Positions 1,459 through 62,771 are shown, counted from the stretch's first letter. The stretch is DNA of 64,000 nucleotides from an uncultured Verrucomicrobiota bacterium (GCA_964533295.1 CAZHLM010000001.1:1958-65957), one strand, 5' to 3'. Numbers and translations: made by a program. Notes: a model not told the origin generated them from the sequence alone.

Positions 1459-1466
1459 CCTGAGAG

Positions 1467-14415: not shown

Positions 14416-15297
14416 ATGTCGGATTCGAAGAAAGCCTCTATCATGCCGGTCATCGCCCTGGCGGGCCTCGCCTTCGCCCTGACTGCCGGCTTCCTGTACA
14501 CGCTGCGGGCTGAGAGGGCCGTCGTGGTCGCCGCCCGGCCGATCAATGTCGGCGCCCGGCTCACGGCCGATGACCTGACGATCAAGAACGTCCGGGCGGC
14601 GGATGTCCCGGCCAGCGCCCTGACCAACGCCGAGGACGCCATCGGCCAGGTGATTGGTCTCCAGCGCGGCAGCGGCGACATCATCACGGCCGAGATGCTG
14701 GGATCCGAGTCGGTCTCGGCCATCGCCGGCGGACTGGCGCCGGACAGCCGGGCCGTGGCCGTGAAGGTCACGCGCTCATCGGGCATGGCCGGCCTGCTGC
14801 GTCCCGGGGACTTCGTGACCCTGATCGCCGTGGTCGAGCCGCCGGACGTCAACGACGTGTTCGCACCGACCGAGCCGGTAACCCAGACGGTGTCTAGACC
14901 CGCGGTGGCGGATGCCGAACCCGCGGCGTCCTCGACCGAGATCGTGCCCCAATCTCCATTCGCACGAGTGACGGCCACCGGGCTCAGGGTGCTGCTCGTG
15001 CCCCAGACCTTCCGGTACGAGGAAGTGACGACCACGGAACAGGACGGCTTCGCCCGCGTGCAGACCTCGCAGGTCGGCCAGCAGGAGTCCGTGATCGTGT
15101 TAGAAGTGCCCGCTGGACCCATTCAGATCGATGGGCCGAACGGCCCGCTCACAGTCACTTTGCCGGAGCTGATCGCGCTTCTGGACTCGCAGGCCAAGGT
15201 GTATCTGGCTCTTGAGCCGGCCGCCGGCGTCGCCGAGGGGCGCTTCCCGGGCGTGGCCATCGAGCAGATCGTTGATGCCGGCGTGGGAGGCCGCTAG
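14416..15297 (+). CDS. cpaB: Flp pilus assembly protein CpaB/RcpC family
   Basis: N-terminal TM. SAF-like segment VVVAARPINVGARLTADDL...VPASAL...AIGQV...GDIITAEML. Confidence 0.7.
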   Translation: MSDSKKASIMPVIALAGLAFALTAGFLYTLRAERAVVVAARPINVGARLTADDLTIKNVRAADVPASALTNAEDAIGQVIGLQRGSGDIITAEMLGSESVSAIAGGLAPDSRAVAVKVTRSSGMAGLLRPGDFVTLIAVVEPPDVNDVFAPTEPVTQTVSRPAVADAEPAASSTEIVPQSPFARVTATGLRVLLVPQTFRYEEVTTTEQDGFARVQTSQVGQQESVIVLEVPAGPIQIDGPNGPLTVTLPELIALLDSQAKVYLALEPAAGVAEGRFPGVAIEQIVDAGVGGR

Positions 15298-15299
15298 CC

Positions 15300-16625
15300 A
15301 TGTCCTCAAACGAAGCCCTGTCCATTTTGCTGGCCGGCCCCAACATGAAATCGATGCTGGACTACGTGTACCCGCCGTTCAAGAGCGATCCGGCTCGTTT
15401 CAACGTGCTCACCCTCTGTGAGAAGTGGGGCGAATTCGAGGGCGACGTGGCGAGCTACAAGCCCGAGGTTGTGGTACTCGAGGCCGCCATCGCGCCGGAA
15501 CCTCTGGCACTGCGGGACGTCCTGGCCCGGTTCCCGGCCGGCACGCTTGCCATTGTGGTCCTGCCTTCCACGCCGGGCTGGCCGGAACGAAGAGGCGCAA
15601 TTGAAGACGTCCGGACCACCGTGCGGGGCGTCTTCATCGCTCCCGTGAACTGGTCGCAGATCGCGGCCCAGGCCTACACCGCCGGCATCACCGAGCGCAC
15701 CCGGAAATTCGAGACTGCCCCGGCCGGCGCTGCCCATGAGACGCCGGGGATGGGCAACTTGCCGTCGTCCGCGGTCGTCGGAACCCGCATCGTCGCCGCG
15801 ACCTCCTTCGCCGGCGGCACGGGCAAGAGCACGATCCTGGAGGCTATCGCCGTCGAACTGGCGCGCAACCATGTCAAGACGTTGTTGTGCTCCTTCAACT
15901 CGCCGCCAGCGGTGGTCGGGCACATGGGGCTGAAATTCGGGCCGAACGCCGTGGAGTGGTTCAATCGTCCCACGACGGACGGGTTCCGGGCCGCGCTCCA
16001 GAGCCCAAAAGGCCACGCCGGGCTCGACGTGCTGCTCGCGCCCGAAGACCCTGAGGCGCTTGCGACGGCGGCGGACCGGCCGACCGAAAATCCGCTCAGT
16101 ATCCGCAACCTGATCCACGCGGCGACCTCGTTCAATTACGGCGTGATCCTCTTGGACCTCCCGCCTTTCGCAGACTCGATGTGGGCCGTGCAGGGCGTGC
16201 TGTCCGCCAATATGGCGCTCCTGGTCAGCCGGCCCACGGTCCACGACCAGTTCGCGGCGCTGCGGGCGTACCGGTTGTTCACGCAGCGCCTGGCCGCCCA
16301 GCACCGGGTCCCGCTTGAATCGATCTTCGCGGTGATCAACTTCACGTCGCCGGATGACAACATGTCCCCGAGCGATTTCGTCGGAGGCCTGGCCCGAGCA
16401 GCCGGGGGCTTCCCACCCATCCTGGCCTCGTTCCCGTATGTCGCCCAGCTCCCGGCTGTGCAGAACCGTGGCATGTCGCCGATGCTGGCGCCGGAGACAG
16501 CCCCCTTCGCCAATGCCGCCAATTCGCTGGCCTCCAAGCTGATCGGCGGTTCGGTGATCCCGATAGCCACCAATGGCAAGCAGCCCGAAAAAGGCTTCTT
16601 GGGGATCAGGATCAAGATCAAGTGA
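15300..16625 (+). CDS. cpaE: CpaE/TadZ-type pilus assembly ATPase (receiver-like N-domain + MinD/ParA-like domain)
   Basis: Deviant Walker A IVAATSFAGGTGKSTI. Hydrophobic stretch VILLDLPP, possible Walker-B region. Confidence 0.7.
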   Translation: MSSNEALSILLAGPNMKSMLDYVYPPFKSDPARFNVLTLCEKWGEFEGDVASYKPEVVVLEAAIAPEPLALRDVLARFPAGTLAIVVLPSTPGWPERRGAIEDVRTTVRGVFIAPVNWSQIAAQAYTAGITERTRKFETAPAGAAHETPGMGNLPSSAVVGTRIVAATSFAGGTGKSTILEAIAVELARNHVKTLLCSFNSPPAVVGHMGLKFGPNAVEWFNRPTTDGFRAALQSPKGHAGLDVLLAPEDPEALATAADRPTENPLSIRNLIHAATSFNYGVILLDLPPFADSMWAVQGVLSANMALLVSRPTVHDQFAALRAYRLFTQRLAAQHRVPLESIFAVINFTSPDDNMSPSDFVGGLARAAGGFPPILASFPYVAQLPAVQNRGMSPMLAPETAPFANAANSLASKLIGGSVIPIATNGKQPEKGFLGIRIKIK

Positions 16626-16632
16626 GGGTCCC

Positions 16633-17547
16633 ATGGAATTCTTGATTTCCGGCCTCGTCTCGCTCTCCGTCTTCAGCCTGGCCTATCACCTGCTTTACCG
16701 GCGGCAGGTCCTGAGGCGCGAGGCAGAAAAGCGCCTCGTGGAAGCCTTTCCTGATCAGCCGGCCCCATCCGAGATCGATCGGAGCAGCCCCGAATACCGG
16801 CTGGCGGCAGCCGGCATCCAGACTCAGAACCCGCGCCTGACATGGCTGTTGCTTCACTACGGGCCGGCAGCGGCAGCCTTGGTCACCACCCTGGCAGTGG
16901 GCATGCCGCCGCTCGTGGTGATTGGGGCCGGCCTGGTGACCTTGATCGCGCCCCGCCAATGGCTGGACGGGCGCGTCAAAGGCCGGGGCCGGCGCCTCGA
17001 GGCCGACCTGCCCCAGGTGTACGTGGAGTTGCTCGCAATCCTGCGGGCTAACCCGGACGTCGCCGGGGCTCTGACCGAAGTTGCCGACGGGCTGGAACGT
17101 GAGAAAGGATCGAACCCAATGTCGGCCGAATTGCGCCGCACAGCGCAGGAGGCGGCGGCGACAGCCATCGGGCGCGAGGAGGCATTTCGCAATCTGCAAT
17201 TGCGCGCGGCGTCACCAAGCCTGGCGAACCTGGGCCTGCTGCTGGAACGCTTCACCCAGACCGGGGCCGGGGGCGGCGCTTTCTTCGACGCCTTCGCCGC
17301 CGGGGCCGGGAACGTGCAATCGATCCTCGAGGCGCGCCAGAAGGCCCAGGCCAAGGCCGCCGAGCAGATGCAATCGGCCCGGATCGTGCCCCTCCTCCTG
17401 GCCGCGACGCTGCTGTTCTTCATGGGCGACGTCACCTTTCGGGCCGCGTTCCAGCTCCCGCTCGTCCAGTTTGTTCTCGCTGGCGCAGCCGTAATCATGT
17501 ATCTGGGCTATGTTGTCATGAGCGATATGGCCCGAGAGGCGGTCTGA
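16633..17547 (+). CDS. tadB: TadB-like inner-membrane platform protein (T2SS-F domain)
   Basis: RBS gtgaggg. GspF-like domain with N- and C-terminal TM helices. Confidence 0.65.
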   Translation: MEFLISGLVSLSVFSLAYHLLYRRQVLRREAEKRLVEAFPDQPAPSEIDRSSPEYRLAAAGIQTQNPRLTWLLLHYGPAAAALVTTLAVGMPPLVVIGAGLVTLIAPRQWLDGRVKGRGRRLEADLPQVYVELLAILRANPDVAGALTEVADGLEREKGSNPMSAELRRTAQEAAATAIGREEAFRNLQLRAASPSLANLGLLLERFTQTGAGGGAFFDAFAAGAGNVQSILEARQKAQAKAAEQMQSARIVPLLLAATLLFFMGDVTFRAAFQLPLVQFVLAGAAVIMYLGYVVMSDMAREAV

Positions 17548-17550
17548 GCC

Positions 17551-18138
17551 ATGGTCACCCTGGACACGCTCCTCGACCTGACTGAGACGATGACCATTCA
17601 GGAGGGCGGGGTCAGCCTCTCGTCTGAAGAGCAACTTGCGGCTTTGCACTCTGCCTGGCAGAGCTTGCAGTCGGTGGCGGCCGAACTTCAGCGGCGCGAG
17701 CGAGTCGTGGCCGAACGAGAGCGCACCCCGGCACCAGCCGAGCCTCAACCGCCCGCCCCGATGCGCAACGTGGCAGGTCTGGCCCAGAACCCTGGGCCCA
17801 GTCGACGCCTCGTGCAAGAACTCCTGACCGACGCCCCGCGGTTGATCGTCGAGGTGCCGATGTCGTGCCTATCGCGCCGGGAGCGCGAGAAATTGTGCGG
17901 CGAAATCGCCTCCCAGGATGGCCTGGAGGCGGTCCTGGCTCAACTCATTCGCGAGTTGGGGCCGAGCCAGGCCCGGGCGCTCACGCTTCGTTTTGGCCTC
18001 GACGGCCAAGGTCCACGCCTTTACGACGATATCGCCCGGACGCTGGGCGTATCCCGCCAGGCAGCCAAGTTCAAAGTGACGCAAGCCTTGCGCGATCTGA
18101 GGAAACCAGACTGCCTCCGTCGCTTGGCAGAGTATTGA
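17551..18138 (+). CDS. Sigma-70 region-4-like HTH protein (minimal sigma/regulator) embedded in the tad operon
   Basis: C-terminal LTLRFGLDGQGPRLYDDIARTLGVSRQAAKFKVTQALRDLR matches sigma-70 region 4. No region 2 is recognisable. Confidence 0.5.
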   Translation: MVTLDTLLDLTETMTIQEGGVSLSSEEQLAALHSAWQSLQSVAAELQRRERVVAERERTPAPAEPQPPAPMRNVAGLAQNPGPSRRLVQELLTDAPRLIVEVPMSCLSRREREKLCGEIASQDGLEAVLAQLIRELGPSQARALTLRFGLDGQGPRLYDDIARTLGVSRQAAKFKVTQALRDLRKPDCLRRLAEY

Positions 18139-18150
18139 AGGAGTCGTGCC

Positions 18151-19032
18151 ATGGAATTCGTCATCGCCCTGCTCGTCGCCGCCCTGACGGCCCTGATCAC
18201 GTACAACGCCCATCCCCTACCGGGCAACTACTTTGAGGAACGTTTGCTCGCGGCTTTCGCACCGGCCGAAGCAAAGCCCTTGCCGTTCTACCGCGGCCTC
18301 CTGGCCGGCTTTGGGCCGCTTGTGAAGTACACGCCGGTCGGCTGGCTCCGCGCCATCGCCCGCCAGCTGTACTGGGCGCAGCTCGCCGGCCGTTGGATGG
18401 GTTGGTCGTTGACCGAGGTCGCCGCGCTGCATGCCGCGCTCCTGGTCGGCGGCGCGGTCCCGGCCATTTTGCTCGCCGGCGGAAGCCCCCTGACGGCAGT
18501 CGCAATCCCGGTCGCGCTTCCACTGGTCTTCAACATCCTGTACTTGCGGGCGCCTTCCCGGCGCGCCCGGCGGCAGTTCGCGGCCGAGCTTCCGGAATTG
18601 GTCGCCGTCGTGGCGGCCGAGGTCGCGGCGGGGACCTCACTGCAAGATGCCATCGCACGCGTCTCCAGCGCCCCGGGCCTGTGCGCGGCCTGGTTCCGGC
18701 TTGCTGGGCAGCGCGCGGCCGGACGGTCACTGTTTACTGAGGAGCACGAGCCAGGCGCCCTGATCCAGGAGGCGCTGGAGTGCGGCGAGCGCGAGCTGAT
18801 CATGTTCGTGCGCGCCCTGGACAACATCAAAAAGCGCGGCACCGGCGCCCGGGAACTCCTGGGTCAGATCGCGCGGGACACGGCCTCGCGTTTCGTGGGC
18901 GCGGCGCAGGTGCGGGCCGAGAAGGTGGGATCGGAGCTCATCCTGCCCATGATCTTTTTCTTTTTCCTGCCGTACGTCGTCGTGATCCTATCGGTGATGA
19001 TGGGACCGGTGTTCAGCGGTGGGTTGTTCTGA
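18151..19032 (+). CDS. tadC: TadC-like inner-membrane platform protein (second T2SS-F domain protein)
   Basis: GspF-like domain, TM helices at both ends, follows tadB in canonical order. Confidence 0.65.
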   Translation: MEFVIALLVAALTALITYNAHPLPGNYFEERLLAAFAPAEAKPLPFYRGLLAGFGPLVKYTPVGWLRAIARQLYWAQLAGRWMGWSLTEVAALHAALLVGGAVPAILLAGGSPLTAVAIPVALPLVFNILYLRAPSRRARRQFAAELPELVAVVAAEVAAGTSLQDAIARVSSAPGLCAAWFRLAGQRAAGRSLFTEEHEPGALIQEALECGERELIMFVRALDNIKKRGTGARELLGQIARDTASRFVGAAQVRAEKVGSELILPMIFFFFLPYVVVILSVMMGPVFSGGLF

Positions 19033-19178
19033 GTTGGTGAGTAGAGAGTGGTTAGTGGTAGGTGGTCAGGAACCAGTGACCAGCCACCAGTTACCCATCC
19101 CCGATTGCTGCTTACGAATCACTGCTCACTGTCCACTGTTCACTATCCACTTACTACTCACCCATTACCAGAGGTAGC
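19033..19178. repeat. ~145-bp strand-asymmetric imperfect inverted repeat (GT-rich arm / CA-rich arm)
   Basis: Left arm ggtgagtagagagtggttagtggtaggtgg. Right arm cactgttcactatccacttactactcaccc (reverse complement of ggtgagtag...). Confidence 0.4.
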
Positions 19179-19179
19179 C

Positions 19180-19590
19180 ATGTCAACTCCAAGACTTGTC
19201 GCCATCGTCCCGGCCGAAGACGTGCTCCAGACACTGGTCAACGGCGATGGGCGCTACACCCTACACCGGGTTTTGTATGACCTGTACAGCCCGTCTTTCC
19301 CTTCGCGCCTTGGCCCGCTGACGGTCAATGTGATCTTCTGTGGCGGCGTGGGCACTTATGCCGCCCGGCTACGGATGCTCAGTCCACAGGGCCACGCCGT
19401 GTCGGAGACAATCTTCAAGTTCGAGGCCAGGACCTATCACCTGCAAGGGATCACGCTCGCCGGCACGCCGGTGGAAGCGCCCGGCGCCTACATCTTACAG
19501 GTGGACTTGGAAGGCCAGATCGTGGGCAGCGCCCCGCTCAAGATCGTGCCGCTCGACCAAGGGGCCAACATCGAAGGACCGGGGCGATGA
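19180..19590 (+). CDS. Hypothetical protein (136 aa)
   Basis: ATG with RBS gaggtag. The upstream part of the track ORF runs into the low-complexity repeat. ATGA-coupled to the LuxR gene. Confidence 0.45.
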   Translation: MSTPRLVAIVPAEDVLQTLVNGDGRYTLHRVLYDLYSPSFPSRLGPLTVNVIFCGGVGTYAARLRMLSPQGHAVSETIFKFEARTYHLQGITLAGTPVEAPGAYILQVDLEGQIVGSAPLKIVPLDQGANIEGPGR

Positions 19591-19895
19591 CACTGCTGCA
19601 TGGCACGACCGTGCCCCTTGACTCACAACGGCCGTTCAAGGCCAAGGACCCATCCTATCGGTATCGGCTTACACCAACCGAGCGCGAGGTGGCCAGTCTC
19701 CTGATAGCCGGACTCGCCACGCGCGAAATTGCGGCCGTGCGGGGGGTCACGCCGAAACGGGTGGAGTGTGTCATCTCCAACATCATCGGCAAGCTGGGGG
19801 TTCAGAACCGCCGCGAGGCCCTGCCGCTGCTCTCGGAAGTCCAGGCGCAGGTGCTCACGCCCCATGGGAGACAGGCCTCATGTTCGCCATGCTGA
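19587..19895 (+). CDS. LuxR/GerE-type HTH transcriptional regulator (small, HTH only)
   Basis: LTPTEREVASLLIAGLATREIAAVRGVTPKRVECVISNIIGKLGVQNRREA. Confidence 0.6.
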   Translation: MTLLHGTTVPLDSQRPFKAKDPSYRYRLTPTEREVASLLIAGLATREIAAVRGVTPKRVECVISNIIGKLGVQNRREALPLLSEVQAQVLTPHGRQASCSPC

Positions 19896-19974
19896 TCGTT
19901 ACGGGGTCCGGCCTGCTCCTGCTTGCGGCCATCACCTGGGTGGTCTGGCAACGAAGTCTGGAGACGGGGCCGTG

Positions 19975-20661
19975 ATGGAAACCCTGCTGGGATGGATCGC
20001 CGATGGGGTTATCTATCTGCTCAACGGCGGCCTGGTCTTGGTGTACGTGCTGTTTGGCCACGCGGCCCAGCTGGCGGCCACGACCTGTGCTGCGGCGCTC
20101 GCACTGACCTTCGACCGGCTTGTCCAACAGGAGGCCGTTTTCGCGCCGGGTCGATACGGCGGGAGTGCCCCGACCCGGCCTCCCCGCACGGCGCAGATCA
20201 CCACGCTGGTCGCGCTGGGGTTATGGCTCCTGGCGAGCTTCGCACTCGGCGCACCGGTTCCGGCCATCGGTGCCGTGATGTGGGCGTTTGCGCTTCTGGC
20301 CCTCCTCATCATGCCGCAGCAACGCTGGTCACTCCTGTGGAGCACCAAGGCCGGGCTGGTCGTGTACAGCCTGGTCGTGATTGCCTATCGCCTCTTCCTG
20401 TGGCAGGCCGCCCAGCTCTCGCCTGCCGATCTGGCCGACGTATTCGGCGGCGCCCGCGCGGCCGGGAGCGTCATCGCCCAAAACGTCGGGACGGTTCAGA
20501 CGGTTGGCGCCTGGCTGTTGTGGGTGATCCTGCCGGCCGGGTACGCGTGGATTCTGATTCAGAACTGGGCCATCCAGCCGATGGCGCTGGTCGGGCCGCT
20601 GCAGGGCGCTCGGGACGTGATCGCGGCGCTGCGAACCCGCGGCGAAGCGAGCCATTCGTAG
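19975..20661 (+). CDS. Polytopic membrane protein, hypothetical
   Basis: METLLGWIADGVIYLLNGGLVLVYVLF... with at least 6 predicted TM helices. Confidence 0.45.
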   Translation: METLLGWIADGVIYLLNGGLVLVYVLFGHAAQLAATTCAAALALTFDRLVQQEAVFAPGRYGGSAPTRPPRTAQITTLVALGLWLLASFALGAPVPAIGAVMWAFALLALLIMPQQRWSLLWSTKAGLVVYSLVVIAYRLFLWQAAQLSPADLADVFGGARAAGSVIAQNVGTVQTVGAWLLWVILPAGYAWILIQNWAIQPMALVGPLQGARDVIAALRTRGEASHS

Positions 20662-20690
20662 GTCGAGGCCATGATAAGTACGGAGGTGCC

Positions 20691-24337: not shown

Positions 24338-24622
24338 GTGTTGCCAGAGCATTCAACGTACGGTCGGGACATCATCGGACCCGTGATGGCGGCCAGGCTT
24401 CTCAGCCTCGACCGGTCCACAGTCCGACGGCTCGCCAATCGTGGCGCAATCCCGGTCTACGCCTGGACCCCGGGCGGACACGCCCGCTTCCGCCGGGCAG
24501 ATGTTGAGGCCTTGCGGGAAAGGCTGGCAGCCCGCTCGAAGCGGGGCCGCACGGTCAAGCGTCTGCGCCAGCGCGCCGGCGCCAAGTCGCGTGAGGTCAG
24601 AGACGATGGTCAAAGGGCTTGA
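24338..24622 (+). CDS. Excisionase/MerR-family HTH DNA-binding protein
   Basis: AARLLSLDRSTVRRLANRGAIPVYAWTPGGHARFRRADVEAL (excisionase-type HTH), Arg/Lys-rich tail. Alternative ATG start at 24386. Confidence 0.4.
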   Translation: MLPEHSTYGRDIIGPVMAARLLSLDRSTVRRLANRGAIPVYAWTPGGHARFRRADVEALRERLAARSKRGRTVKRLRQRAGAKSREVRDDGQRA

Positions 24623-25160
24623 GGCCCTGGCCGCGGCCGGGCTGCTGGCGCTGTCGGGCTACCGTGTGTTGCAGGGCGGGCTGCTCGGCATCTTTCTGGC
24701 CGTCCAGACGACGGTCGTTGCCGTCCTGCTCCTGGTCCGGCGCGCCCCAGCCCAAGAGGCCAGCTGGGTATTCCGGCTACTGGCCTGGCTCTCGGCCGGC
24801 CTGCCCGTCCTCTTGCAGCCCGGCGCGGGCGCCACGTGGCCGGCAGCGGTGCAGATCGCGGGGTTAATGATCGCGATCTGGGCCAAGGCCAGCCTGGGCC
24901 GGTCCTTCGGCATCGCCCCCGCAGACCGAGGCCTGTGCGTCCTCGGCCCATACCGGTGGCTGCGCCACCCGGCGTACGCCGGAGAGCTGTTGAGCTTTAC
25001 GGGCGTCTGGGCCTCGGCCCCGACCCTCTGGAACACCGCCTTGCTCTTGCTGATCGGCGTGAGCCTCCTGGTCAGGATCGCGGCGGAAGAGTCGGTGATG
25101 AGTGGCTATCCCCAGTACGCGGCGCGGGTGCGCTGGCGTCTGGTGCCGGGAGTGTGGTGA
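24606..25160 (+). CDS. Isoprenylcysteine carboxyl methyltransferase (ICMT)/phospholipid methyltransferase-family membrane protein
   Basis: Four TM helices. GPYRWLRHPAYAGELL is the RHPxY signature of the ICMT/PEMT family. Confidence 0.6.
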   Translation: MVKGLEALAAAGLLALSGYRVLQGGLLGIFLAVQTTVVAVLLLVRRAPAQEASWVFRLLAWLSAGLPVLLQPGAGATWPAAVQIAGLMIAIWAKASLGRSFGIAPADRGLCVLGPYRWLRHPAYAGELLSFTGVWASAPTLWNTALLLLIGVSLLVRIAAEESVMSGYPQYAARVRWRLVPGVW

Positions 25161-25330: not shown

Positions 25331-28300
25331 ATGAGCCGCAGAAGCACTCCGCTAATGGCCGGGCTATTTGTGGCAGCTGTGTTCGCCCTGACCAGCGGCC
25401 CCGCCCACGCGGCCCGCTACGGCTCTCCAACCGTGATCGGGCCAGTGCCCGCCAATGGTGTGCTGCGCGTTTACCTGAAAGCCATGTCGGCCTCCGGGCC
25501 CCACCGGCTGAACTTCCTCAACACGCGTACGGGCGCCTTCAGCACGGTGTCAACGCCAGGGGGTTCGTATGGCCTGGTCGGGCTGGCGACTACCTTACCC
25601 GTGGCGACGGGCGATTCGGTCCAGATTGAGATGCTCAACGACAACACCGGCGGTTCGATGGCGATCGGTTATGAAGACCCGGTGGCGGCCTGGCAGTGCA
25701 ACGGCGGCGACGATTTCGGCGATCTTTACGGCATGGCCGCAGCCGCGGGCGCGCCCATCCTGGCCGTGCAATGTTGGGAGGACTGGACGGACGCCGATTA
25801 CAACGACGTGGCCCTGATCGTGTCTTATGAGCCGGCCACGGTCTCAACCAACACCTTCACCCCAACGGCCACGCAAACCGCGACCTGGACGCCGACGGCG
25901 ACCCGCACACCGACCGCGACTGCGACCGCGACCGCGACCTGGACGCCGACCGCGACTGCGACCGCGACTCCGGTTCGGGCGGATCTCTCGGTCACGGTGT
26001 CCAATAGCGAAAGCTCGGTGACCGCCGGGACCGCGACTATTTATGCGGTCGTGGTCCGCAACGACGGACCCAATCCGGTCACAGCAGCCCCGGTCAGTGC
26101 CAGTTTCTCCGCGGCGTTCGGCTCCCTGACCTGGACCTGTTCGGCCACGGGCGGCATGTGTGGCGCAGGGAGCGGCTCCGGCAGCGTCAATACGACTGTA
26201 AGCCTGAGCGCTGGCGGCTCGGCCACCTTCACGGTAAGCGGCCTCGTGCGCCACGATGCGACTGGCGTGGCCTCCGCCTCCGCCAGCGTGAGCACGGCTG
26301 GCGGGGTCCAGGAGTCCGATCCGGCGGATAACAGCAGCTCGGACTCGGATCCCATCCGGGTCATCACCGATCTCTCGCTCACCAAGGGCAACGGCACCGG
26401 CGTCGTGATCCCGGGGACAGAGACCACGTACACCCTGGTCGTGGCCAACGGCGGCCCAAGCCGCGCGGTTGATGTGCCGGTCACCGATATTTTTCCAGCG
26501 CAGTTGGAGGCCGTGACCTGGACGTGCGCGGCATCCGCGGGGGCGTGTGGCTCAGACGCTGGAGCGGGAGACATCCACGCTTTGGTCAGCCTGGATCCAG
26601 GCGGAACGGCAAGCTTCACCGCGGTCGCCAGGGTGCGGGCGGACGCAACGGGCACGGTCTCGAATTTGGCTGCGCTTGGAGTCCCGAGCGGTGCGATCGA
26701 CCCAACTCCTGAGGATGAAACCGCGACCGATGTGGACGTCCTTGAGCCGCGGGCTGATCTCGCCCTGAGCCTCGCGAATGGCGTGGACGCGATTGTGCCT
26801 GGTACGGACACGTCCTATACCGTCACCGTCACCAATCGCGGGCCGAGCACGGTCGCGGGTGCCCGTGTGAGCGTTCCTTTCGCGGCACAGCTGTCGAACA
26901 TCTCCTGGTCGTGCGCCGCCACGGGTGGGGCCTGTGGCCTGGCAGGGGGCGATGGGGATGTTGAGACTACCCTGACCCTTAGCCCGGGCGGGTCGGCAAC
27001 ATTCACGGCGACGGGGAGAGTGGCGGCCGGGGCGACGGATGCCCTGACTCAGGCCGCGACCGTCGGTGTTCCGGCAGGCGTCCTCGATCCTGACACCGCC
27101 AACAATCGTGCCGTGGACACGGACGCGCTGGCACCCGTGGCCGACATTGCCATCTCCAAAAGCGTTTCCCCCTCCAGCCTCGCGCCAGGCCAATGGGTGA
27201 CATACACCATCACTGTTCTCAACGCCGGGCCAAGCGATGCGCCGACGGTGACCGTCACGGACTACCTGGCCCCGGATCTACAGAACGCGACCTGGACGTG
27301 CGCGGCTTCTGCTGGGTCCACCTGCGCGAAAGCCAGCGGGTCAGGGGACATTCAAACGACGGTTGATCTGAAGGCCGGTGGAATGGCCACCTTCACCTTG
27401 CGGACGCGGGTTCGCAGCACGGCAGCCGGGGTCGTGAACAACTCGGCGACGGCGGACGTGGGTGGCTCAGTCCTGGACCCGAATCCGGGCGACAACCACA
27501 GTGGGGACATACCCGTAGTGCTCTTCCCCGAGGCCGGCCTCGCCATCGTGAAGACGAACGGCGTCAACGCCATCACGCCGGGGTTGCCCGTCACCTACAC
27601 GATCACGGTCCACAACGGCGGCCCCAGCGCGGCCAGGGGAGTCGCCGTGCTCGATATGGTCCCCGCGCAGCTGGCCGGAGCGACCTGGACCTGTGCGGCA
27701 ACGGTCGGCTCCCGTTGTGCAATCGACGCGGGGAGCCGGGACATTAGCACGACCGTGGACCTCCTCGACGATGGCCAGGCTGTCTTCAACCTGGTGGGCC
27801 GCGTCCCCGCCGACGCCCACCTGAGCGGGGTCGGGATGACTAATACCGTCTCGCTCACGGCGCCGGCCGGTGTGACCGTCCCACCTGGTTTCCAATCGAG
27901 CACGGACGCCGATCCGTTTGCACCCCAGGCGGACCTGGCCGTGACCCTGAGCTCGGACGCGGTCCCCGGGGCGCCGCCCGGCACTGAAATCCGGCAGCGC
28001 CTGTCGCTCGCCAACCTCGGGCCGAGCGTGGCCGTCAACGCTCGCCTCGTGTATAGGCTCCCGGCCAGCGCGGAGGTCTTGGCACCGCCCGCGGGCTGTA
28101 CGCTGGCCGGGGACAGAATTACGTGTGACCTGGGCCAACTAGGGACTGGGGATCGGCGAGACGTGTTTATCCGACTTCGGCATTTGGAAGAAGGCACCCT
28201 CACGACCAGCGCACAGGCCTCGTCCGACGTGCCGGACCCGGCAGAGGGGAACAATTCGGCCAGCCACACGTCCTTCACGGGACCACGCCCGACCACGGTC

Positions 28301-28702
28301 CCGACTCACACACCAACCGCCACGCCGCCCACGCCCACGGCGACGGCCCAACCCGGCCAGCGCGCGTCCGAGACGCCGCCGGCCACCACGACTCCGACCC
28401 GGACACCAATGCCCACCACGACGGCGTCCGCGACCGTCTCGCCGACGCCAACGCGCGAGCCCAGCCGCACTCCGGTCCAGATGCGCGTCACGCCCGTGAG
28501 GCTGACTCCGACCCCGCCCGCGCCAAGCGCGCGAAACGGCTGGCTCTGGCTATATGGGCTCGCCACAACAATTCTTTCCGGGCTGATCCTGGGCACGACC
28601 GCGCTGCTGCGTGACCCGCGGCCGTGGGCCCTTCGGCGTCTCACGGCCCTGGCGGCCTGGCAGCTCCAACGAAAGCAGGACTTTGAGGACCACACACCAT
28701 GA
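25331..28702 (+). CDS. Large cell-surface protein: N-terminal domain with DUF4114-like motif, Thr/Pro/Ala linker, ~7 DUF11 repeat domains, Pro/Thr-rich stalk and C-terminal TM anchor
   Basis: Signal peptide MSRRSTPLMAGLFVAAVFALTSGPAHAA. WEDWTDADYNDVALIV. Repeated ...TWTC(A/S)A(S/T)GGxCG...GDI.TTV.L..GG.A(T/S)FT... units (DUF11). C-terminal WLWLYGLATTILSGLILGTTALL. Confidence 0.7.
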   Translation: MSRRSTPLMAGLFVAAVFALTSGPAHAARYGSPTVIGPVPANGVLRVYLKAMSASGPHRLNFLNTRTGAFSTVSTPGGSYGLVGLATTLPVATGDSVQIEMLNDNTGGSMAIGYEDPVAAWQCNGGDDFGDLYGMAAAAGAPILAVQCWEDWTDADYNDVALIVSYEPATVSTNTFTPTATQTATWTPTATRTPTATATATATWTPTATATATPVRADLSVTVSNSESSVTAGTATIYAVVVRNDGPNPVTAAPVSASFSAAFGSLTWTCSATGGMCGAGSGSGSVNTTVSLSAGGSATFTVSGLVRHDATGVASASASVSTAGGVQESDPADNSSSDSDPIRVITDLSLTKGNGTGVVIPGTETTYTLVVANGGPSRAVDVPVTDIFPAQLEAVTWTCAASAGACGSDAGAGDIHALVSLDPGGTASFTAVARVRADATGTVSNLAALGVPSGAIDPTPEDETATDVDVLEPRADLALSLANGVDAIVPGTDTSYTVTVTNRGPSTVAGARVSVPFAAQLSNISWSCAATGGACGLAGGDGDVETTLTLSPGGSATFTATGRVAAGATDALTQAATVGVPAGVLDPDTANNRAVDTDALAPVADIAISKSVSPSSLAPGQWVTYTITVLNAGPSDAPTVTVTDYLAPDLQNATWTCAASAGSTCAKASGSGDIQTTVDLKAGGMATFTLRTRVRSTAAGVVNNSATADVGGSVLDPNPGDNHSGDIPVVLFPEAGLAIVKTNGVNAITPGLPVTYTITVHNGGPSAARGVAVLDMVPAQLAGATWTCAATVGSRCAIDAGSRDISTTVDLLDDGQAVFNLVGRVPADAHLSGVGMTNTVSLTAPAGVTVPPGFQSSTDADPFAPQADLAVTLSSDAVPGAPPGTEIRQRLSLANLGPSVAVNARLVYRLPASAEVLAPPAGCTLAGDRITCDLGQLGTGDRRDVFIRLRHLEEGTLTTSAQASSDVPDPAEGNNSASHTSFTGPRPTTVPTHTPTATPPTPTATAQPGQRASETPPATTTPTRTPMPTTTASATVSPTPTREPSRTPVQMRVTPVRLTPTPPAPSARNGWLWLYGLATTILSGLILGTTALLRDPRPWALRRLTALAAWQLQRKQDFEDHTP
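25850..25990 (+). repeat. Tandem codon repeats (accgcgac...) encoding a TPTATATAT linker
   Basis: Reiterated acc-gcg-act/gac units inside the DUF11 protein gene. This is coding low complexity, not CRISPR. Confidence 0.5.
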
Positions 28703-29298
28703 CTGAACTCACCCTCCTATCCGTCATCATTCAGGTAGCGACCCTCCTGGCACTCCTGAGCCTGGGCCTGATTGCGAGCTACTACTTCAAGTGGCAAGCC
28801 GTCGAGCTGGAATTGGCCCGTGCGGTGCTGGAGGACTGGGCCATGCTCGAACGCCGGAAGTTCCGCGAGGCGAAGGCCGCCCAGACCCTGGTCCCGGATC
28901 CCCTGGCCTGGGCCTCCGCGCAGTTGGCCGATGGCCTTGGCTTCGAGACTCAGGTCACCGCGGTCGCGCGGGCCGTCCCGGCGATGCGCGCGGTCGAGCT
29001 CATCGCCGCGGACGGGCGCCGGGTCGTCATCTCCCCCCTGAGTGCCCGGGCCATCAAGCAGGCGCAGTCCCTGGGAAAGGGCCACCTGGCCGCCGCGTAC
29101 AACCAGCCGCTCATCAATGGCCGCAGGCCGGTGAGCGTTGAGCGGACTCTGCTGAGTGCTGGCGACTACTTTGACCTGGAGGCCGAGCAGGCCGGGCAGC
29201 GGTTGAACGTGTGCTGGGCTGGCGTCACCCGCCTGTGGTTCCACGTGCTGCCGCCCCTGGAGCGACACGCGGGGCCACGCGAGGCACGGGTGAATTGA
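28699..29298 (+). CDS. Hypothetical membrane-anchored protein (199 aa)
   Basis: ATGA overlap with the DUF11 protein gene. N-terminal TM LLSVIIQVATLLALLSLGLIASYYF. Confidence 0.45.
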   Translation: MTELTLLSVIIQVATLLALLSLGLIASYYFKWQAVELELARAVLEDWAMLERRKFREAKAAQTLVPDPLAWASAQLADGLGFETQVTAVARAVPAMRAVELIAADGRRVVISPLSARAIKQAQSLGKGHLAAAYNQPLINGRRPVSVERTLLSAGDYFDLEAEQAGQRLNVCWAGVTRLWFHVLPPLERHAGPREARVN

Positions 29299-29328
29299 CA
29301 TGCGGCGCGGTGGAGTAAGGGGGCGCTC

Positions 29329-29997
29329 ATGGTGACCCGGCTGCGCCGCATGGCGCTCACGGATGCTGCCCTGCCGGCGTTTGGTGTCCTGGTGTCCGGC
29401 TTAGTCCTGGCAGCCGGCGTCTATGGCGGCTGGGAGGCGGGCCTGATGGTCCTGGCCCTGCTGTGGCTGACGATCATGGCGGCATTCGATGTGAAGAGCC
29501 GCGAAATCCCTCATGCCGGCCTGGTGCTGGCGCCGTTCCTGGGGGCGTCGGGATATGGGGTCTGGCGCGGCGATTGGGCGCTGGCCGGACTCGCGCTCGT
29601 CGTCCTGGCCGCCAGCGAGCGAGACCGGCTGCCTGGAGCCTGGCGGAGGGTCGTCGTACTTGTGGCGCTAGCGGCTTGCGCAGGGCTGCTCTGGCAAATG
29701 CGGCCCGAGTCCCTGGCCGGCGCCCTGGCTGTCCTGGTCTTCTGGGTCATGTTCGATCTGAATTGGTGGGCGGGGATGGATGCCCTGGCGGCGATCACGC
29801 TCGTCGTCCTGTGGCCGGACCTGGCGATGGTGCTGGCCATCGGCCTGGCGCACCTGGGCCTGGCGCTCGTCTCTCGCCGGCCCCTGACCCGGCCCCGGCC
29901 GCTGCGTGCGGAAGAGCTGCTCGCGACCGGGCGGCCGGGCTTCCCGGCCCTGGCGCTCTCGATGGGTTTGTACTGGATTCTATGGCTACTCAAGTGA
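29329..29997 (+). CDS. tadV: Prepilin peptidase (A24 family, TadV/CpaA-like)
   Basis: Polytopic membrane protein. Candidate catalytic Asp motifs AFDVKSREIP and WWAGMDALAAI. Confidence 0.65.
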   Translation: MVTRLRRMALTDAALPAFGVLVSGLVLAAGVYGGWEAGLMVLALLWLTIMAAFDVKSREIPHAGLVLAPFLGASGYGVWRGDWALAGLALVVLAASERDRLPGAWRRVVVLVALAACAGLLWQMRPESLAGALAVLVFWVMFDLNWWAGMDALAAITLVVLWPDLAMVLAIGLAHLGLALVSRRPLTRPRPLRAEELLATGRPGFPALALSMGLYWILWLLK

Positions 29998-30004
29998 GGG
30001 AACG

Positions 30005-31483
30005 ATGATTTTTACAAATCTGGCAGAGGCCTTCAGCGCCCAGAGCGGCAACGCGGCTGGCAGCCAACAGACCGGTGGCGGGTTGCTGGGCCTGCTCGGC
30101 CCGAGCGCGTCCACACCTGGGCTGAACCCAACCGTCCGGCGCGAGATCTTCGACGAGGTGGCGCGCCAGGTCGCGGCCGAGTTCCGGGCCGAGCAGCTCC
30201 GCACGCCGACAGACGCTGACCGCGAGGCCGTGCGGGTCCGCGTCAATCAGGCCACGGCCATCGCCGTCCGGCGGCGGGGCCTGTCCAGCGTGCCCTACGA
30301 CGAAGAGCAGCGCCTGGCCGCGGACATCGCGCGCCGGCTGGTGGGCCTGGGCTTCCTGGACCTCCTGCTGCCGCCGGCGCGCCACGACATCGCCGAGATC
30401 GCGCTGGATGCCTTCGGGGTCGCGTGGCTCAAGCTCAAGGGTAAACGCGAGTTCGAGCCCCTGGACGATCTCGACCTGGACCTGGTGGAGGTCGAGACGG
30501 TCTTCTCGAATTTGCTCGGCCAGCAGCTCAAGGCCGCGAGCGAGGCCGAGCCATCCATCAACGCCAAGCTGCCGCGCACCCGGGCCAACCCGGGTGGCGG
30601 GCGCATCAAGTACATCCATCCCATCATCACGCCGGGCGCGGGCTTCCCGTCGGTCAACATCCGCCTGTTCGAGCCGGAGCCTGTGAAGCCGGAGAAGCTC
30701 CTCGAGTGGGGGATGCTGGACGAGGGGACCCTCGACCTGGTGGCAGGCCTGGTGCGACGGGGCCAGCGCGGCTTCATCTGCGGGGGGACCTCGTCCGGCA
30801 AGACCACCATGCTCTCGATGCTGTGCAACTTCCTGCCTGTGAACTGGCGGGTTTTGACCATCGAGGACCCGCAGGAGATCTGGATCGACAACCCGCACGT
30901 GGTCACTCTGGAGGCCCGCCCCGCCAGTGCGGCCAGCGAGCTGCGGCCATATCTCCTGCGGGACGGCGTGGACGACGCCATGCGTATGACGCCCGATTAC
31001 CTGGTCGTCGGCGAGGTGCGCGACGGCCTGGCGGGCCAGGGCCTGTTCCGGGCCATGATGTCCGACCATGCCGGCATGTCCACGTTCCATGCTGAGAGCC
31101 CGGCCCTGGCCGTCGAGCGCATGGCGCTTCTGTTGGAAGCCGACACGCGCACCAGCGGCCTGGCAGCGCGCAAGATGTTCGCCTCGGCCCTCGACTGGCT
31201 GATGCAGATCGGCTTCGACCCTGCCGGCCGGCGGCGGGTCTTCCAGGTGGTCGAAGTGGACGAGGAGCTCGCCAACGGCCAGGTGACCTTTCAGAAGCTG
31301 GTTGCGTATGAAGGTGATGGAGTCTGGCGACAGGGGGGCGGTCCCGGCCGCGAGCGGGGCGGACACGGAACCGCCGCGGCCCTGCCACGAACCTGGCGTG
31401 AAATCATGGCCCTGGATGCCGGGCTGCGGGAAAGGTATCGGCCGGTCATCGAGCGCCGCCGGGCGGCCTTCCGGGCAACTTGA
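30005..31483 (+). CDS. cpaF: CpaF/TadA-type secretion ATPase (type II/IV secretion ATPase family)
   Basis: Walker A GGTSSGKTTML, Asp box LTIEDPQE, Walker B DYLVVGEVRD, and His box region. Confidence 0.85.
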   Translation: MIFTNLAEAFSAQSGNAAGSQQTGGGLLGLLGPSASTPGLNPTVRREIFDEVARQVAAEFRAEQLRTPTDADREAVRVRVNQATAIAVRRRGLSSVPYDEEQRLAADIARRLVGLGFLDLLLPPARHDIAEIALDAFGVAWLKLKGKREFEPLDDLDLDLVEVETVFSNLLGQQLKAASEAEPSINAKLPRTRANPGGGRIKYIHPIITPGAGFPSVNIRLFEPEPVKPEKLLEWGMLDEGTLDLVAGLVRRGQRGFICGGTSSGKTTMLSMLCNFLPVNWRVLTIEDPQEIWIDNPHVVTLEARPASAASELRPYLLRDGVDDAMRMTPDYLVVGEVRDGLAGQGLFRAMMSDHAGMSTFHAESPALAVERMALLLEADTRTSGLAARKMFASALDWLMQIGFDPAGRRRVFQVVEVDEELANGQVTFQKLVAYEGDGVWRQGGGPGRERGGHGTAAALPRTWREIMALDAGLRERYRPVIERRRAAFRAT

Positions 31484-31574
31484 AAGGGGGCGATGACAGG
31501 AAAACGGACCTCCCGCGGCCGTGGCCGCAACACGTGGTACATGCACAACTCACCCTACCCAAGGAGAAACTGAC

Positions 31575-31721
31575 ATGCTGACTCGATTGCAAAACAAGGG
31601 CCTGGAGACGCTGGAGTGGATCGGCATCGGCGTGGTCCTGATCATCGTGGCCGTGATCGCCTACAACGCCCTGGGCGGCAAGATCGTCGAGTGGATCGCC
31701 CAGGTCGCCGGCGCGATCTGA
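31575..31721 (+). CDS. flp: Flp-family pilin (class III signal peptide)
   Basis: Perfect RBS aaggag. MLTRLQNKG|LETLEW: G at -1, E at +5, aromatic at +6, followed by a hydrophobic helix IGIGVVLIIVAVIAYNALGG. 48 aa. Confidence 0.7.
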   Translation: MLTRLQNKGLETLEWIGIGVVLIIVAVIAYNALGGKIVEWIAQVAGAI

Positions 31722-31728
31722 GGCCGCC

Positions 31729-32136
31729 ATGCTGACGCGACACAGCCGGCGCGGTCTGGAGGTCCTGGAGGCAGCGGCGACGCTCCCCCTAATGCTCTTC
31801 CTCCTGACCGCGATTGCGAACCTGGGCTTCGTGGTCTACGCCCAGCAGGCCGTGCAGAACGCGGCCAACTACGGCGCCCGGATGGGCTCGACGGCCCAGG
31901 ACTGCCGCTCGTGCGTGGCCGCCGGCGCGGCCTGGTCGTCCATCCGCCAGACCGGCCTGCAGAACGCGGGCGTGGATGTACTCGCGCCCGGCGGGGTCGT
32001 GGGCAGCACGCTCAAGATCCGCGTGAGCGCCCAGGTGCCCAACCTGCTCGGGCCGCTGGCCGCGCTGCTGGGCGGGAGCCTGGGCGATCCCTTCCAGGTC
32101 TCCGCCGAGGCGACGTTCCGGGCGGAGGGCTGGTAA
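31729..32136 (+). CDS. tadE: TadE-like pseudopilin/pilus assembly protein
   Basis: N-terminal RRGLEVLEAAATLPLMLFLLTAI, the TadE-like domain. Confidence 0.65.
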   Translation: MLTRHSRRGLEVLEAAATLPLMLFLLTAIANLGFVVYAQQAVQNAANYGARMGSTAQDCRSCVAAGAAWSSIRQTGLQNAGVDVLAPGGVVGSTLKIRVSAQVPNLLGPLAALLGGSLGDPFQVSAEATFRAEGW

Positions 32137-32217
32137 AGCAGTAGGCAGGAGGCGGTTGGCAGAAGGCAGTGAGCAGTCATTGATAACTGCCTTCTGCTCT
32201 CTGCCTCCTGCCTACTG
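32137..32217. repeat. 81-nt imperfect palindrome/hairpin in the tadE-tadG intergenic region
   Basis: Arms gcagtaggcaggaggcggttggcagaaggcagt / actgccttctgctctctgcctcctgcctactg (about 27 of 32 positions complementary), loop gagcagtcattgata. No T-run follows. Confidence 0.5.
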
Positions 32218-32231
32218 ATCACTGGAGATTT

Positions 32232-32663
32232 ATGCTCAAGACACGACACGCCTACTCCACCCTCTTTTGGGTCGGCTTCCTGACATTCGCCGTGGTGCCG
32301 CTCCTGGCACTGGCGATCAACGTCGGCCGCTGGTTCTACGCTCGGGCTGAGATGTACAAGGCGGCGGATGCTGCGGCGCTGGCCGCAGTACAGGAAGTGG
32401 ATGTGCCCATCTACATTGAAACCGGCCAGATCATCATCCGCGACACGGCCTTCGGCAAGGCTCAGGAGTACGCGACCTTGAATGCCAATTACCTGATCAG
32501 CCGCAAGATCTACCCGAGTGTGACGGCGATTGAGGTGGACAACGCCCGCAAGACCGTGCGGGTGAAGGTCATGGCCGCGGCCGAGGAGCTCGTGCCCCTC
32601 ATCGGGACCGTTTATCTGTACGGAGAAGGGGAGGCCCAGGTGCGAGGCCGTTTCCAGCCATAG
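32232..32663 (+). CDS. tadG: TadG/TadE-like pilus assembly protein
   Basis: N-terminal TM, then AAVQEVDVPIYIETGQ..., typical of TadG-like proteins that follow tadE. Confidence 0.55.
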   Translation: MLKTRHAYSTLFWVGFLTFAVVPLLALAINVGRWFYARAEMYKAADAAALAAVQEVDVPIYIETGQIIIRDTAFGKAQEYATLNANYLISRKIYPSVTAIEVDNARKTVRVKVMAAAEELVPLIGTVYLYGEGEAQVRGRFQP

Positions 32664-62769: not shown

Positions 62770-62771
62770 TG

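Follow-up and report, generated by a model that had tools for sequence, protein, structure and literature searches.

What does a Tad/Flp pilus do on a mobile element? The question is raised by a 64-kb stretch of bacterial DNA (CAZHLM010000001.1:1958-65957; the whole of it is hereafter called the window), in which an initial annotation had recognised a secretin-less Tad pilus locus at 14416-32663, interleaved with regulators, surface proteins and a giant ATPase, and had raised DNA transfer, DNA uptake or adhesion as its possible function. The functional unit is wider than this span and covers at least 8482-37326 (Table 1), within a segment from about 7 kb to 37.3 kb in which nearly all convincing open reading frames (ORFs) lie on the + strand with short gaps between them. 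We propose, with a probability of roughly one half, that the region from 8.5 to 37.3 kb is the conserved backbone of an integrative mobile element in an Anaerolineae-type Chloroflexota host and that it encodes a machine of its own for DNA transfer from cell to cell, independent of type IV secretion systems (T4SSs). Homology statements for window proteins refer throughout to the larger ORFs scanned over 1-64 kb.

The argument starts from the large ATPase of the locus. It matches over its full length the NCBIfam model NF033849 (serine-rich protein, ser_rich_anae_1), above the curated cutoff, and has no Pfam match, including DUF87/HerA at the curated threshold; PF01935 is carried by only two of its distant homologues. 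Three parts can be distinguished, namely an N-terminal domain (residues ~30-260), a region rich in Ser, Gly, Thr and Gln (~268-560) and a HerA-like C-terminal part (560-1186) with the Walker A motif GFGKT and the Walker B motif VFWEEA. The family alignment has the same layout, with a conserved N-terminal domain, a Ser/Gly/Thr/Gln-rich region of variable length and a conserved C-terminal half (GDTGFGKT, FEEAN). In a profile search of the PDB, the protein matched HerA/DUF87 chains only (2e-12 to 1e-9), with no VirB4, VirD4 or FtsK among the matches. We also compared an AlphaFold2 (AF2) monomer model, with pLDDT values above 90 in both parts flanking the Ser-rich region, with the PDB using Foldseek. 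The top group comprised HerA-NurA, trimeric and hexameric HerA (including Sulfolobus HerA) and the C-terminal domain of DndH, together with Sir2-HerA, DUF4297-HerA and TdpAB, all at about 1e-10 (with a probability of 1.0 for the HerA matches), while the VirB4 protein TrwK appeared only at rank 47 (E value of 1.4e-7). The N-terminal domain alone gave no significant fold match in the PDB. Judged from these profiles and from the model, the ATPase falls into the HerA clade within the FtsK/HerA superfamily and is not specifically FtsK- or TraD-like, so of its first description as HerA/FtsK/TraD-like only the HerA part stands. The HerA clade is a family of DNA translocases, and the protein may form a hexameric DNA-translocating ring. 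The reservation that the ATPase might prove unrelated to DNA-translocating ATPases is answered by its place in the HerA superfamily.

This ATPase belongs to a conserved set of genes. More than 120 homologues were present in the protein collection, and all the named ones of the close branch are from Chloroflexota (Anaerolineales, Caldilineaceae and Thermoflexia). When a single genome was scanned for each GTDB species, 250 relatives were obtained. Longilinea arvoryzae, Levilinea saccharolytica and Flexilinea flocculi are isolates represented among the best 80 loci, and two or three divergent copies of the module are present in several genomes. To count linkage, window proteins were compared with six-frame ORFs in the 40 loci whose 10-kb flanks were complete. 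The genes found most often near the ATPase are CpaF (38 of 40 loci) and the membrane protein TM228 (37), followed by CpaB and TadZ (35 each), p460 (34), TadB and TadC (30 each), the ICMT-family methyltransferase (20), p180 (16) and p464 (14). The usual order is SSB (the single-stranded DNA-binding protein), p180, p464, a variable stretch, p182, p460, TM228, ATPase, CpaB, TadZ, CpaF, TadB, TadC, ICMT, a second variable stretch, TadV, TadE and TadG, of which the window is a rearranged version that resembles locus L008. The p180 homologues always stand directly before p464, and the ICMT gene, where present, usually follows TadC directly (for example, L002 19122-19688). The TM228 profile matches the gene directly upstream of the ATPase in two further loci (L004 and L005) and on the plasmid pRUMAL01, and found no relative in the PDB.

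The initial annotation had described the genes between tadB and tadV as non-canonical insertions. This view has to be revised, as there is a distinct and conserved Tad-like module to which the ATPase and TM228 permanently belong, and these two genes and the ICMT gene form part of its conserved core. The sigma-like protein, the GerE regulator, the DUF11 protein and the Ig-repeat protein are not conserved across the related loci and look like variable cargo; the DUF11 protein has no homologue among these loci, and a Big_13 protein comparable to the Ig-repeat protein is also present in L002. The assignments first given to these genes were borne out by curated models for the LuxR-type regulator, the ICMT-like methyltransferase, the DUF11 protein and the repeat protein, and the sigma-70 region 4 match falls just under its cutoff. 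In a Pfam survey of 118 noncore flank genes we obtained 169 families, each in one to three genes; the flanks are therefore variable, and the survey does not tell the nature of the elements. The PEMT/ICMT methyltransferase may modify pilin or lipid, and we found no Tad-system role for such an enzyme.

The linkage is not restricted to Chloroflexota. A tblastn search of PLSDB located the ATPase on two circular Clostridia megaplasmids only, pRUMAL01 of Ruminococcus albus 7 (420 kb; locus L088, 2141-35931) and pB6464 of Alkaliphilus sp. (436 kb; locus L089). On both plasmids the module follows genes for a primase and DnaE (the DNA polymerase III alpha subunit) and starts with SSB, a homologue of p464 and a small membrane protein. 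The serine-rich ATPase comes next, and then a gene without a name, a TadZ-like AAA ATPase, CpaF, a pair of T2SSF genes and an A24 peptidase; on pB6464 a Flp pilin is also annotated ahead of the peptidase, and a TadE/G protein behind it. The labels SSB, TadZ-like and A24 are taken from the annotation of the plasmids, and the homology of the ATPase (at about 1e-66 and 1e-62), CpaF, TadB and TadC was confirmed on both by sequence searches. The p464 profile matches pB6464 at 2.5e-26 and pRUMAL01 at 2.7e-14, as well as L004 and L005, and the TM228 profile matches pRUMAL01 at 9e-8 and nothing on pB6464. The ATPase, p464, TM228 and SSB also occur in contigs of Oliverpabstia-type gut Lachnospiraceae, a branch in which a single 90% cluster holds 427 member sequences on 115 contigs. 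One of the gut Lachnospiraceae contigs (L004) has NlpC/P60 and lysozyme genes directly after the Tad genes, a wall-hydrolase pair typical of Gram-positive conjugation systems. The gene linkage is thus conserved across two phyla, and p460, p182 and p180 appear, from the sequences compared, to be specific to Chloroflexota. MOB-suite classifies pRUMAL01 as mobilizable only (MOBP) and pB6464 as non-mobilizable, and recognises a mating-pair system on neither.

That the window locus lies on a mobile element, as first proposed, is confirmed by several of its genes. The integrase gene starts 91 bp downstream of tRNA-Met and a second recombinase adjoins it, and a recombinase at a tRNA gene is a feature of integrative elements. 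Other element genes are a ParM-like partition protein, SSBs, a primase, an SNF2-type helicase, a methyltransferase, toxin-antitoxin pairs and a defence island. We found no match to VirB4, VirD4/TraG/TcpA or a canonical relaxase (MOB F/H/P/Q/V/T) in the larger window ORFs or in the genes of the 9.5 kb beyond the window. Movement was observed directly by comparison of related loci, as isolates or MAGs of Levilinea saccharolytica, Bellilinea sp. and Flexilinea flocculi have in common a segment of about 11.4 kb, from p182 to CpaF, with 93.6 to 96.1% nucleotide identity, sharp borders and unrelated flanks (L033 5690-18250, L036 and L046). This indicates that the module was recently exchanged between Anaerolineae genera, the transfer being seen for related modules and not for this exact element. 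The same subfamily has a variable insertion hotspot between CpaF and TadB. A chromosomal locus conserved in all relatives, the outcome that would have spoken against a mobile element, is not what we see, since the module is patchy, multicopy and recently exchanged.

A prophage was rejected as the carrier, with no ATPase relatives in IMG/VR and no capsid, terminase or portal matches. PHROGs matches were limited to the partition protein, SSB and one family of unknown function for the ATPase. In the BFVD, a few jumbo Bacillus phage proteins share an ATPase-like architecture, and large Bacillus phage proteins such as S5MSQ0 of phage JL (913 aa, ~1200 columns, E value of 3e-13) and gp155 of phage G resemble the whole ATPase model and not the P-loop core alone.

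The Tad genes are all present about where they had been placed, on the + strand, with differing degrees of support from models. CpaB, CpaF, TadE and the TadG-like protein are recognised by curated models. For CpaF, the best NCBIfam model is TIGR03819, under its cutoff, and the top models are of the TadA, VirB11 and FlaI types, all below equivalog cutoffs. The window TadZ reaches AAA_31, CbiA and ParA only below threshold, but its orthologues match them clearly, and with CpaB above its cutoff both proteins can be counted as components of a Tad system. TadB, TadC, TadV and Flp are without any Pfam or NCBIfam match. The orthologue profiles of TadB and TadC match one another as well as PF00482/T2SSF-annotated genes of L004, pRUMAL01 and pB6464 at 1e-7 to 2e-16 (for TadC, the L004 gene at 2e-16 and that of pB6464 at 1.2e-15), and through these family profiles the presence of two paralogous T2SSF platform proteins is supported. 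For TadV we rely on the family alignment, in which both catalytic-Asp motifs of A24 peptidases are kept, D-x-[RK]-S-R-E-[VI]-P and GGADAK (AGMDAL in the window); no A24 HMM matches, and hhalign of its profile against Clostridia A24 peptidases gave a weak probability of 5.7%. The 48-aa Flp candidate, which has no HMM match, was read by eye, with a class III signal (KG/LETLEW) followed by a hydrophobic helix, and TadE carries the same type of processing signal (RG/LEVLE). No secretin (RcpA/CpaC) or TadD family match was found in the window, in agreement with the initial annotation for the secretin, whose absence is expected because Chloroflexota are monoderms.

Part of the module (SSB, p464, p182 and p460) lies upstream of the span first annotated. 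Among these, p464 is a candidate for DNA processing. Its family comprises 238 representatives at 50% identity, obtained by an exhaustive search (a word-indexed profile search gave 4), and the C-terminal block contains a nearly invariant PD-x13-ExE-x10-KW, the signature of PD-(D/E)xK nucleases. The winged helix matches 5aip, of the MarR/PadR type, at 7e-6, and members of the family match VRR_NUC and AHJR-like models weakly. The MOB_C relaxases, of which TraX of pAD1 is an example, likewise combine an N-terminal winged helix with PD-(D/E)xK. Replic_Relax (PF13814), their Pfam counterpart (PMC5357655), is weak in 6 of 107 members of the p464 family (best E value of 5.6e-4, all below the curated threshold) and has no match in the window protein. 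In architecture p464 agrees with the MOB_C relaxases, which it weakly resembles, but it does not qualify as a member of PF13814, and its long coiled coil sets it apart from them. An SSB gene is found upstream of the module also in L004, L005, L038, L061, L064, L076, pRUMAL01 and pB6464. The window SSB is a tandem duplication of 310 aa with an acidic tail region, and the SSBs of the Clostridia loci are likewise long (~230 to 300 aa). PDB profile searches and family models gave no match for p182 and p460, and family searches gave none for p180.

The head of the cluster carries a regulatory region. A c-di-GMP-I riboswitch aptamer of the GGC variant (RF03167, Rfam clan CL00126) scores above the gathering threshold, its ligand c-di-GMP being assigned by class. 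It is preceded by a promoter-like site at 6610-6637 and followed after 47 nt by a terminator (6812-6837) that is likely the expression platform of the riboswitch. This assembly lies upstream of the ParM-like gene and of the whole codirectional Tad-bearing cluster, and no riboswitch was found in the 11 related loci scanned. The counts of predicted terminators in 8-39 kb were within about 1 standard deviation of the shuffle mean, with none convincing in 8-37 kb. Just upstream of the promoter, two copies of TTTCGGGATACCCGAAATTCC (6530-6550 and 6559-6579, 29 bp apart), each an imperfect palindrome and with 0.04 matches expected by chance, may serve as an operator, or the ParM-like system may use them as a parC-like site.

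From this gene content we infer a mechanism in which every functional step, including DNA as the substrate, is deduced. The secretin-less Tad/Flp pilus (CpaF, TadB/C, TadZ, CpaB, TadV, Flp and TadE/G) would join cells and breach the wall, assisted in making contact by p182, p460, the LysM-CAP protein and the variable adhesins. The element DNA would be processed by p464 through its winged helix and PD-(D/E)xK domain, the single strand would be coated by SSB, and the HerA-type hexamer, docked on TM228, would pump the DNA outward through the membrane, with expression of the whole gated by the c-di-GMP-class riboswitch. A transfer apparatus seems the simplest reading because the module is a conserved, recently transferred backbone without recognised transfer genes.

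The Ser-rich region of the ATPase invites a bolder idea. Its length varies from 215 to 1050 residues across the family (whole proteins of 1.1 to 1.5 kaa), and it has periodicities of 2 and 6 residues, with an S/T autocorrelation of 0.35 at lag 6 and a sign that alternates between even lags (positive) and odd lags (negative). Most homologues have a hydrophobic Gly-rich motif, such as GGVSVAPAGIGL, at the midpoint of this region, which the AF2 model draws as very long beta-hairpins with pLDDT below 35. The family profile reaches only an E value of ~0.015 with the pore-forming stems of anthrax-type toxins. One could imagine that the insertion is not a linker or a fibre but a very long beta-hairpin with a hydrophobic Gly-rich tip and that six copies form a polar beta-barrel tube that inserts into the membrane and spans the wall as a conduit for DNA, in a T4SS-less conjugation machine new to monoderms to which the Tad pilus gives contact, but we regard the conduit as speculative and improbable.

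Several observations weigh against a transfer machine. In fold, the ATPase comes closest to HerA proteins from repair and defence systems and not to VirB4 or VirD4, and the similarity of p464 to MOB_C relaxases is sub-threshold. A role of p464 as a replication initiator is equally possible, because DnaE and primase genes adjoin it on the Clostridia plasmids, and only about half of the Anaerolineae loci have p464 and SSB at a distance of no more than 10 kb. A search with the tRNA-Met 3' end and any k-mer of at least 11 nt from 1300-1600 found no att repeat, and thus no right end, in the window and the 9.5 kb beyond, so that either the element is larger than 72 kb or the att core is short. More generally, the function is assigned wholly by guilt by association.

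The other points against transfer make up the case for its main rival, element-encoded adhesion as a cargo benefit, in which the Tad pilus and the big surface proteins would let the host attach to surfaces or to kin, with the ATPase, TM228, p464 and SSB serving replication or maintenance and being merely syntenic. Tad pili are classically adhesins, and c-di-GMP control, here represented by the riboswitch at the cluster head, is classically linked with adhesion and biofilm. The large surface proteins of the cluster, with DUF11 and Ig repeats, suit adhesion, and the adjacency of p464 and SSB to DnaE and primase on the Clostridia plasmids would suit maintenance. Tad clusters of Anaerolineae have been reported as highly transcribed and interpreted as adhesive pili (PMC4877987), and a DUF11 protein has been reported to make grappling-hook appendages on the surface of the chloroflexotan Litorilinea aerophila (bioRxiv 2025.08.19.671072). 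However, variation in the cluster affects the adhesin-like genes, and the most constant companions of the Tad genes are the ATPase and TM228 (37 to 38 of 40 loci, in two phyla); it is not obvious why an ATPase for maintenance would need a membrane partner of its own; and the segment exchanged between genera at 94-96% identity holds the ATPase together with CpaB, TadZ and CpaF. On balance we consider adhesion unlikely, although it is the strongest of the competing explanations.

The same components could also work in the opposite direction, the Tad pilus capturing DNA or partner cells and TM228 and the HerA-type motor pulling DNA in. SSB is a component of competence systems too. Tad pili are reported to take part in the DNA uptake of some bacteria (Micrococcus and Liberibacter). 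A parallel is found in Sulfolobales, where Ups type IV pili are reported to provide contact and the polytopic CedA and the HerA/VirB4-like CedB to import DNA (PMC9905601 and PMC11868833). This is the same combination of pilus, polytopic membrane protein and HerA-related motor, but the Ced system is archaeal, chromosomal and DNA-importing, its parts are homologous to those of T4SSs, and we found no sequence kinship with TM228. In addition, the module is the backbone of mobile elements and plasmids, where selection favours the export of the element itself, and there are no ComEC, DprA or ComEA-like genes among the window ORFs scanned. We judge import clearly improbable.

A HerA-based antiphage defence system that came to lie next to a pilus operon by chance is more improbable still. 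The closest solved structures are indeed those of the Sir2-HerA, DUF4297-HerA and TdpAB complexes, and the element has a defence island with a prokaryotic Argonaute (pAgo), a type I restriction-modification (R-M) system, AbiE and a KAP NTPase, but the island is a separate block of lower GC content (38.9-54.4 kb), and the fixed partners of the ATPase are a membrane protein and Tad genes. A known HerA defence system was ruled out by these partners, by the weak scores of the PADLOC HerA models (only ~3e-4, 17 bits) and by the lack of any Sir2, DUF4297 or nuclease effector adjoining the ATPase. Equally remote is contact-dependent killing or protein delivery in the manner of the Tad-like Kil apparatus of Myxococcus, although Tad-like systems are reported to be able to kill prey (PMC8460266) and wall-active genes stand beside the module in L004. 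We recognised neither toxin nor immunity genes in the cluster, and the conserved partners are DNA related (SSB, nuclease and HerA-type motor).

Compared with known systems, the pilus parts of this DNA-transfer candidate are those of the Tad/Flp (type IVc) family, including the monoderm versions of Bifidobacterium, Micrococcus and Chloroflexota (rcpC-tadZABC). Both have CpaF, TadB/TadC, TadZ, CpaB/RcpC and TadE/TadG and, as in monoderms, no secretin, and the module has candidates for the TadV-type peptidase without a methyltransferase domain and for the Flp pilin with the signal G/xxxxE(Y/W). The difference lies in the permanent link to a HerA-type ATPase, TM228, a PD-(D/E)xK protein, SSB and often ICMT, in the divergence of TadB, TadC, TadV and Flp beyond the reach of curated models, and in the location on mobile elements. 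A Tad locus as the conspicuous backbone of a transferable element is also known from the Cutibacterium acnes plasmids p15.1.R1, pIMPLE-HL096PA1 and pTP-CU411, which further encode ParA, toxin-antitoxin and autolysin genes, are common to different phyla at >95% identity and whose tad locus has been interpreted in terms of adhesion and virulence. Among PLSDB plasmids, no homologue of the serine-rich ATPase was detected beyond the two Clostridia records.

With the T4SSs of monoderms (MPF-FATA), the module shares a membrane ATPase of the FtsK/HerA superfamily, a polytopic membrane partner and bitopic envelope proteins, genes for wall binding or hydrolysis, surface adhesins and an SSB in leading position, and TrwK is a detectable fold relative of the ATPase. 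In contrast to them, it has no VirB4, VirD4 or relaxase match, HerA is clearly closer, and an apparently complete Tad machine takes the place of the channel parts. The HerA ATPases themselves (HerA-NurA; Sir2-HerA, DUF4297-HerA and TdpAB; DndH/DptH) are the best matches over the C-terminal 500-odd residues, covering Walker A and B and the region after Walker B, but the window ATPase has an extra N-terminal domain, the Ser-rich insertion and membrane and pilus partners, and no nuclease or NADase partner. The type IVb thin pilus of the IncI1 plasmid R64 and the pilus of the integrative and conjugative element PAPI-1 are element encoded and used for mating-pair formation. These elements also have a full T4SS that moves the DNA, whereas none was found for the window element.

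The rest of the window is occupied by regions of a different character (Table 1 lists the features discussed so far). The GC content is about 66% over 14-36 kb and drops in a block at 38-50 kb, and the defence island (38.9-54.4 kb, 52-57% GC) is separate from the Tad module. It opens with a 1154-aa KAP-family P-loop NTPase (38950-42414, + strand; PifA/QatA-like in PADLOC) and continues with a type I R-M operon whose genes are separated by a long pAgo together with an AbiEi/AbiEii pair (49015-51038). The pAgo (45369-48731, + strand; PADLOC PDLC02394, 1006 bits), which has an N-terminal Schlafen/AlbA_2-like region, stands between hsdS and hsdR, and a YgjP peptidase also lies within the island. 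On the - strand, 56056-63530 encodes DUF6908, a primase of the Zn-ribbon/Toprim type, an SNF2-type helicase and a methyltransferase resembling DUF6094/mad2; past the window's right end (L086 1-10000) follow DUF2442/DUF4160, PIN-MazE, RadC, a short SSB and a Rad52-like protein. Together, these two stretches resemble what is typical of the leading or establishment regions of conjugative elements. The linkers of the DUF11 protein are rich in Thr and Pro. A single-sequence PDB search with a 672-aa protein (4388-6406) gave no match, and NCBIfam gave no useful match for ten unassigned window proteins.

Table 1. Features of the window, with coordinates counted from its first nucleotide.
Feature	Coordinates	Strand	Evidence
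tRNA-Met (candidate integration site, attL side)	1387..1460	+	ARAGORN and Rfam tRNA
Tyrosine integrase	1551..2543	+	Phage_integrase 4e-35 and SAM-like N-terminal domains
Second tyrosine recombinase	2653..3804	-	Phage_integrase 3.1e-9
Two perfect 21-nt repeats TTTCGGGATACCCGAAATTCC	6530..6579	+	candidate operator or centromere-like site
c-di-GMP-I (GGC variant) riboswitch aptamer	6672..6765	+	RF03167, 63.7 bits vs gathering score 59, E 1e-12
Intrinsic terminator	6812..6837	+	11-bp stem and T-run
ParM/actin-like partition protein	6977..8149	+	ALP_N 4e-5; phrog_691 (partition protein) 4.5e-20
SSB, two OB-fold repeats	8482..9414	+	PF00436 6.6e-17, two stretches
p180, N-terminal transmembrane (TM) helix and helical domain	9404..9946	+	no family matches
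p464, coiled coil, MarR/PadR-like winged helix and PD-(D/E)xK motif	9943..11337	+	family motif, 5aip match
LysM and CAP secreted protein, peptidoglycan-binding	11568..12278	+	LysM 1.9e-11, CAP 8.9e-13
p182, bitopic envelope protein, conserved Cys pair	12440..12988	+	cluster in 44 loci
p460, secreted Cys-rich protein	12985..14367	+	signal-like N-terminus; 34/40 loci
CpaB/RcpC	14416..15297	+	TIGR03177 78.8 bits vs cutoff 71; also RcpC, SAF
TadZ/CpaE-like ParA-family protein	15300..16625	+	sub-threshold AAA_31, CbiA, ParA; atypical P-loop SFAGGTGKST
TadB-like platform protein, divergent T2SSF	16633..17547	+	orthologue family profile
Sigma-70 region-4-like helix-turn-helix (HTH) protein, variable accessory	17551..18138	+	Sigma70_r4 23.6 bits vs 24.1 cutoff
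TadC-like platform protein, T2SSF family	18151..19032	+	orthologue family profile
LuxR/GerE HTH regulator, variable accessory	19587..19895	+	GerE 1.3e-10
TM228, 228-aa polytopic membrane protein	19975..20661	+	37/40 loci, upstream partner of ATPase
Serine-rich HerA-clade ATPase, 1186 aa (assigned from profiles and model)	20691..24251	+	NF033849 1026.7 bits vs 650 cutoff
HTH_17/MerR-like (excisionase-type) DNA-binding protein	24338..24622	+	HTH_17 9.8e-10
PEMT/ICMT-family membrane methyltransferase	24606..25160	+	PEMT 8.5e-8, ICMT 3.4e-6
DUF11-repeat surface protein, 1123 aa, C-terminal TM anchor	25331..28702	+	DUF11 1.3e-73, six repeats
p199, bitopic protein	28699..29298	+	homologue before A24 peptidase in locus L002, 3e-24
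Candidate TadV-like prepilin peptidase, divergent	29329..29997	+	both Asp motifs in family alignment
CpaF/TadA secretion ATPase	30005..31483	+	T2SSE 1.7e-26
Candidate Flp-type pilin, 48 aa	31575..31721	+	read from sequence; gene call in JGI record
TadE pseudopilin	31729..32136	+	PF07811 3.3e-9
TadG-like pseudopilin	32232..32663	+	PF13400 8.6e-10
Beta-propeller/Ig-repeat surface protein, 1489 aa, variable adhesin-like cargo	32857..37326	+	Big_13, Rax2 propeller, PKD, fn3

Literature searches gave no paper in which the serine-rich ATPase family is connected with Tad systems or with transfer. The pilus parts are of a known kind, and what is new is that, on mobile elements in two phyla, they are permanently joined with a HerA-type motor, a membrane partner and a nuclease. 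To our knowledge, conjugation in monoderms is currently put down to two routes, T4SSs of the VirB4/VirD4 type and the FtsK-like TraB of actinomycetes, and elements that lack both are labelled non-transmissible in genome surveys. Digesters, sediments and hot springs are rich in Anaerolineae, one of the groups with the module. It is also found on megaplasmids of Clostridia and in common Lachnospiraceae of the human gut, and its function could be tested in cultured R. albus 7, Levilinea saccharolytica, Flexilinea flocculi and Longilinea arvoryzae. If the module moves DNA, some plasmids and islands now regarded as non-mobilizable would be self-transmissible, Tad pili would acquire a role in gene flow, and a membrane-coupled branch for DNA export, distinguished by its unusual Ser-rich insertion, would be added to the HerA family.

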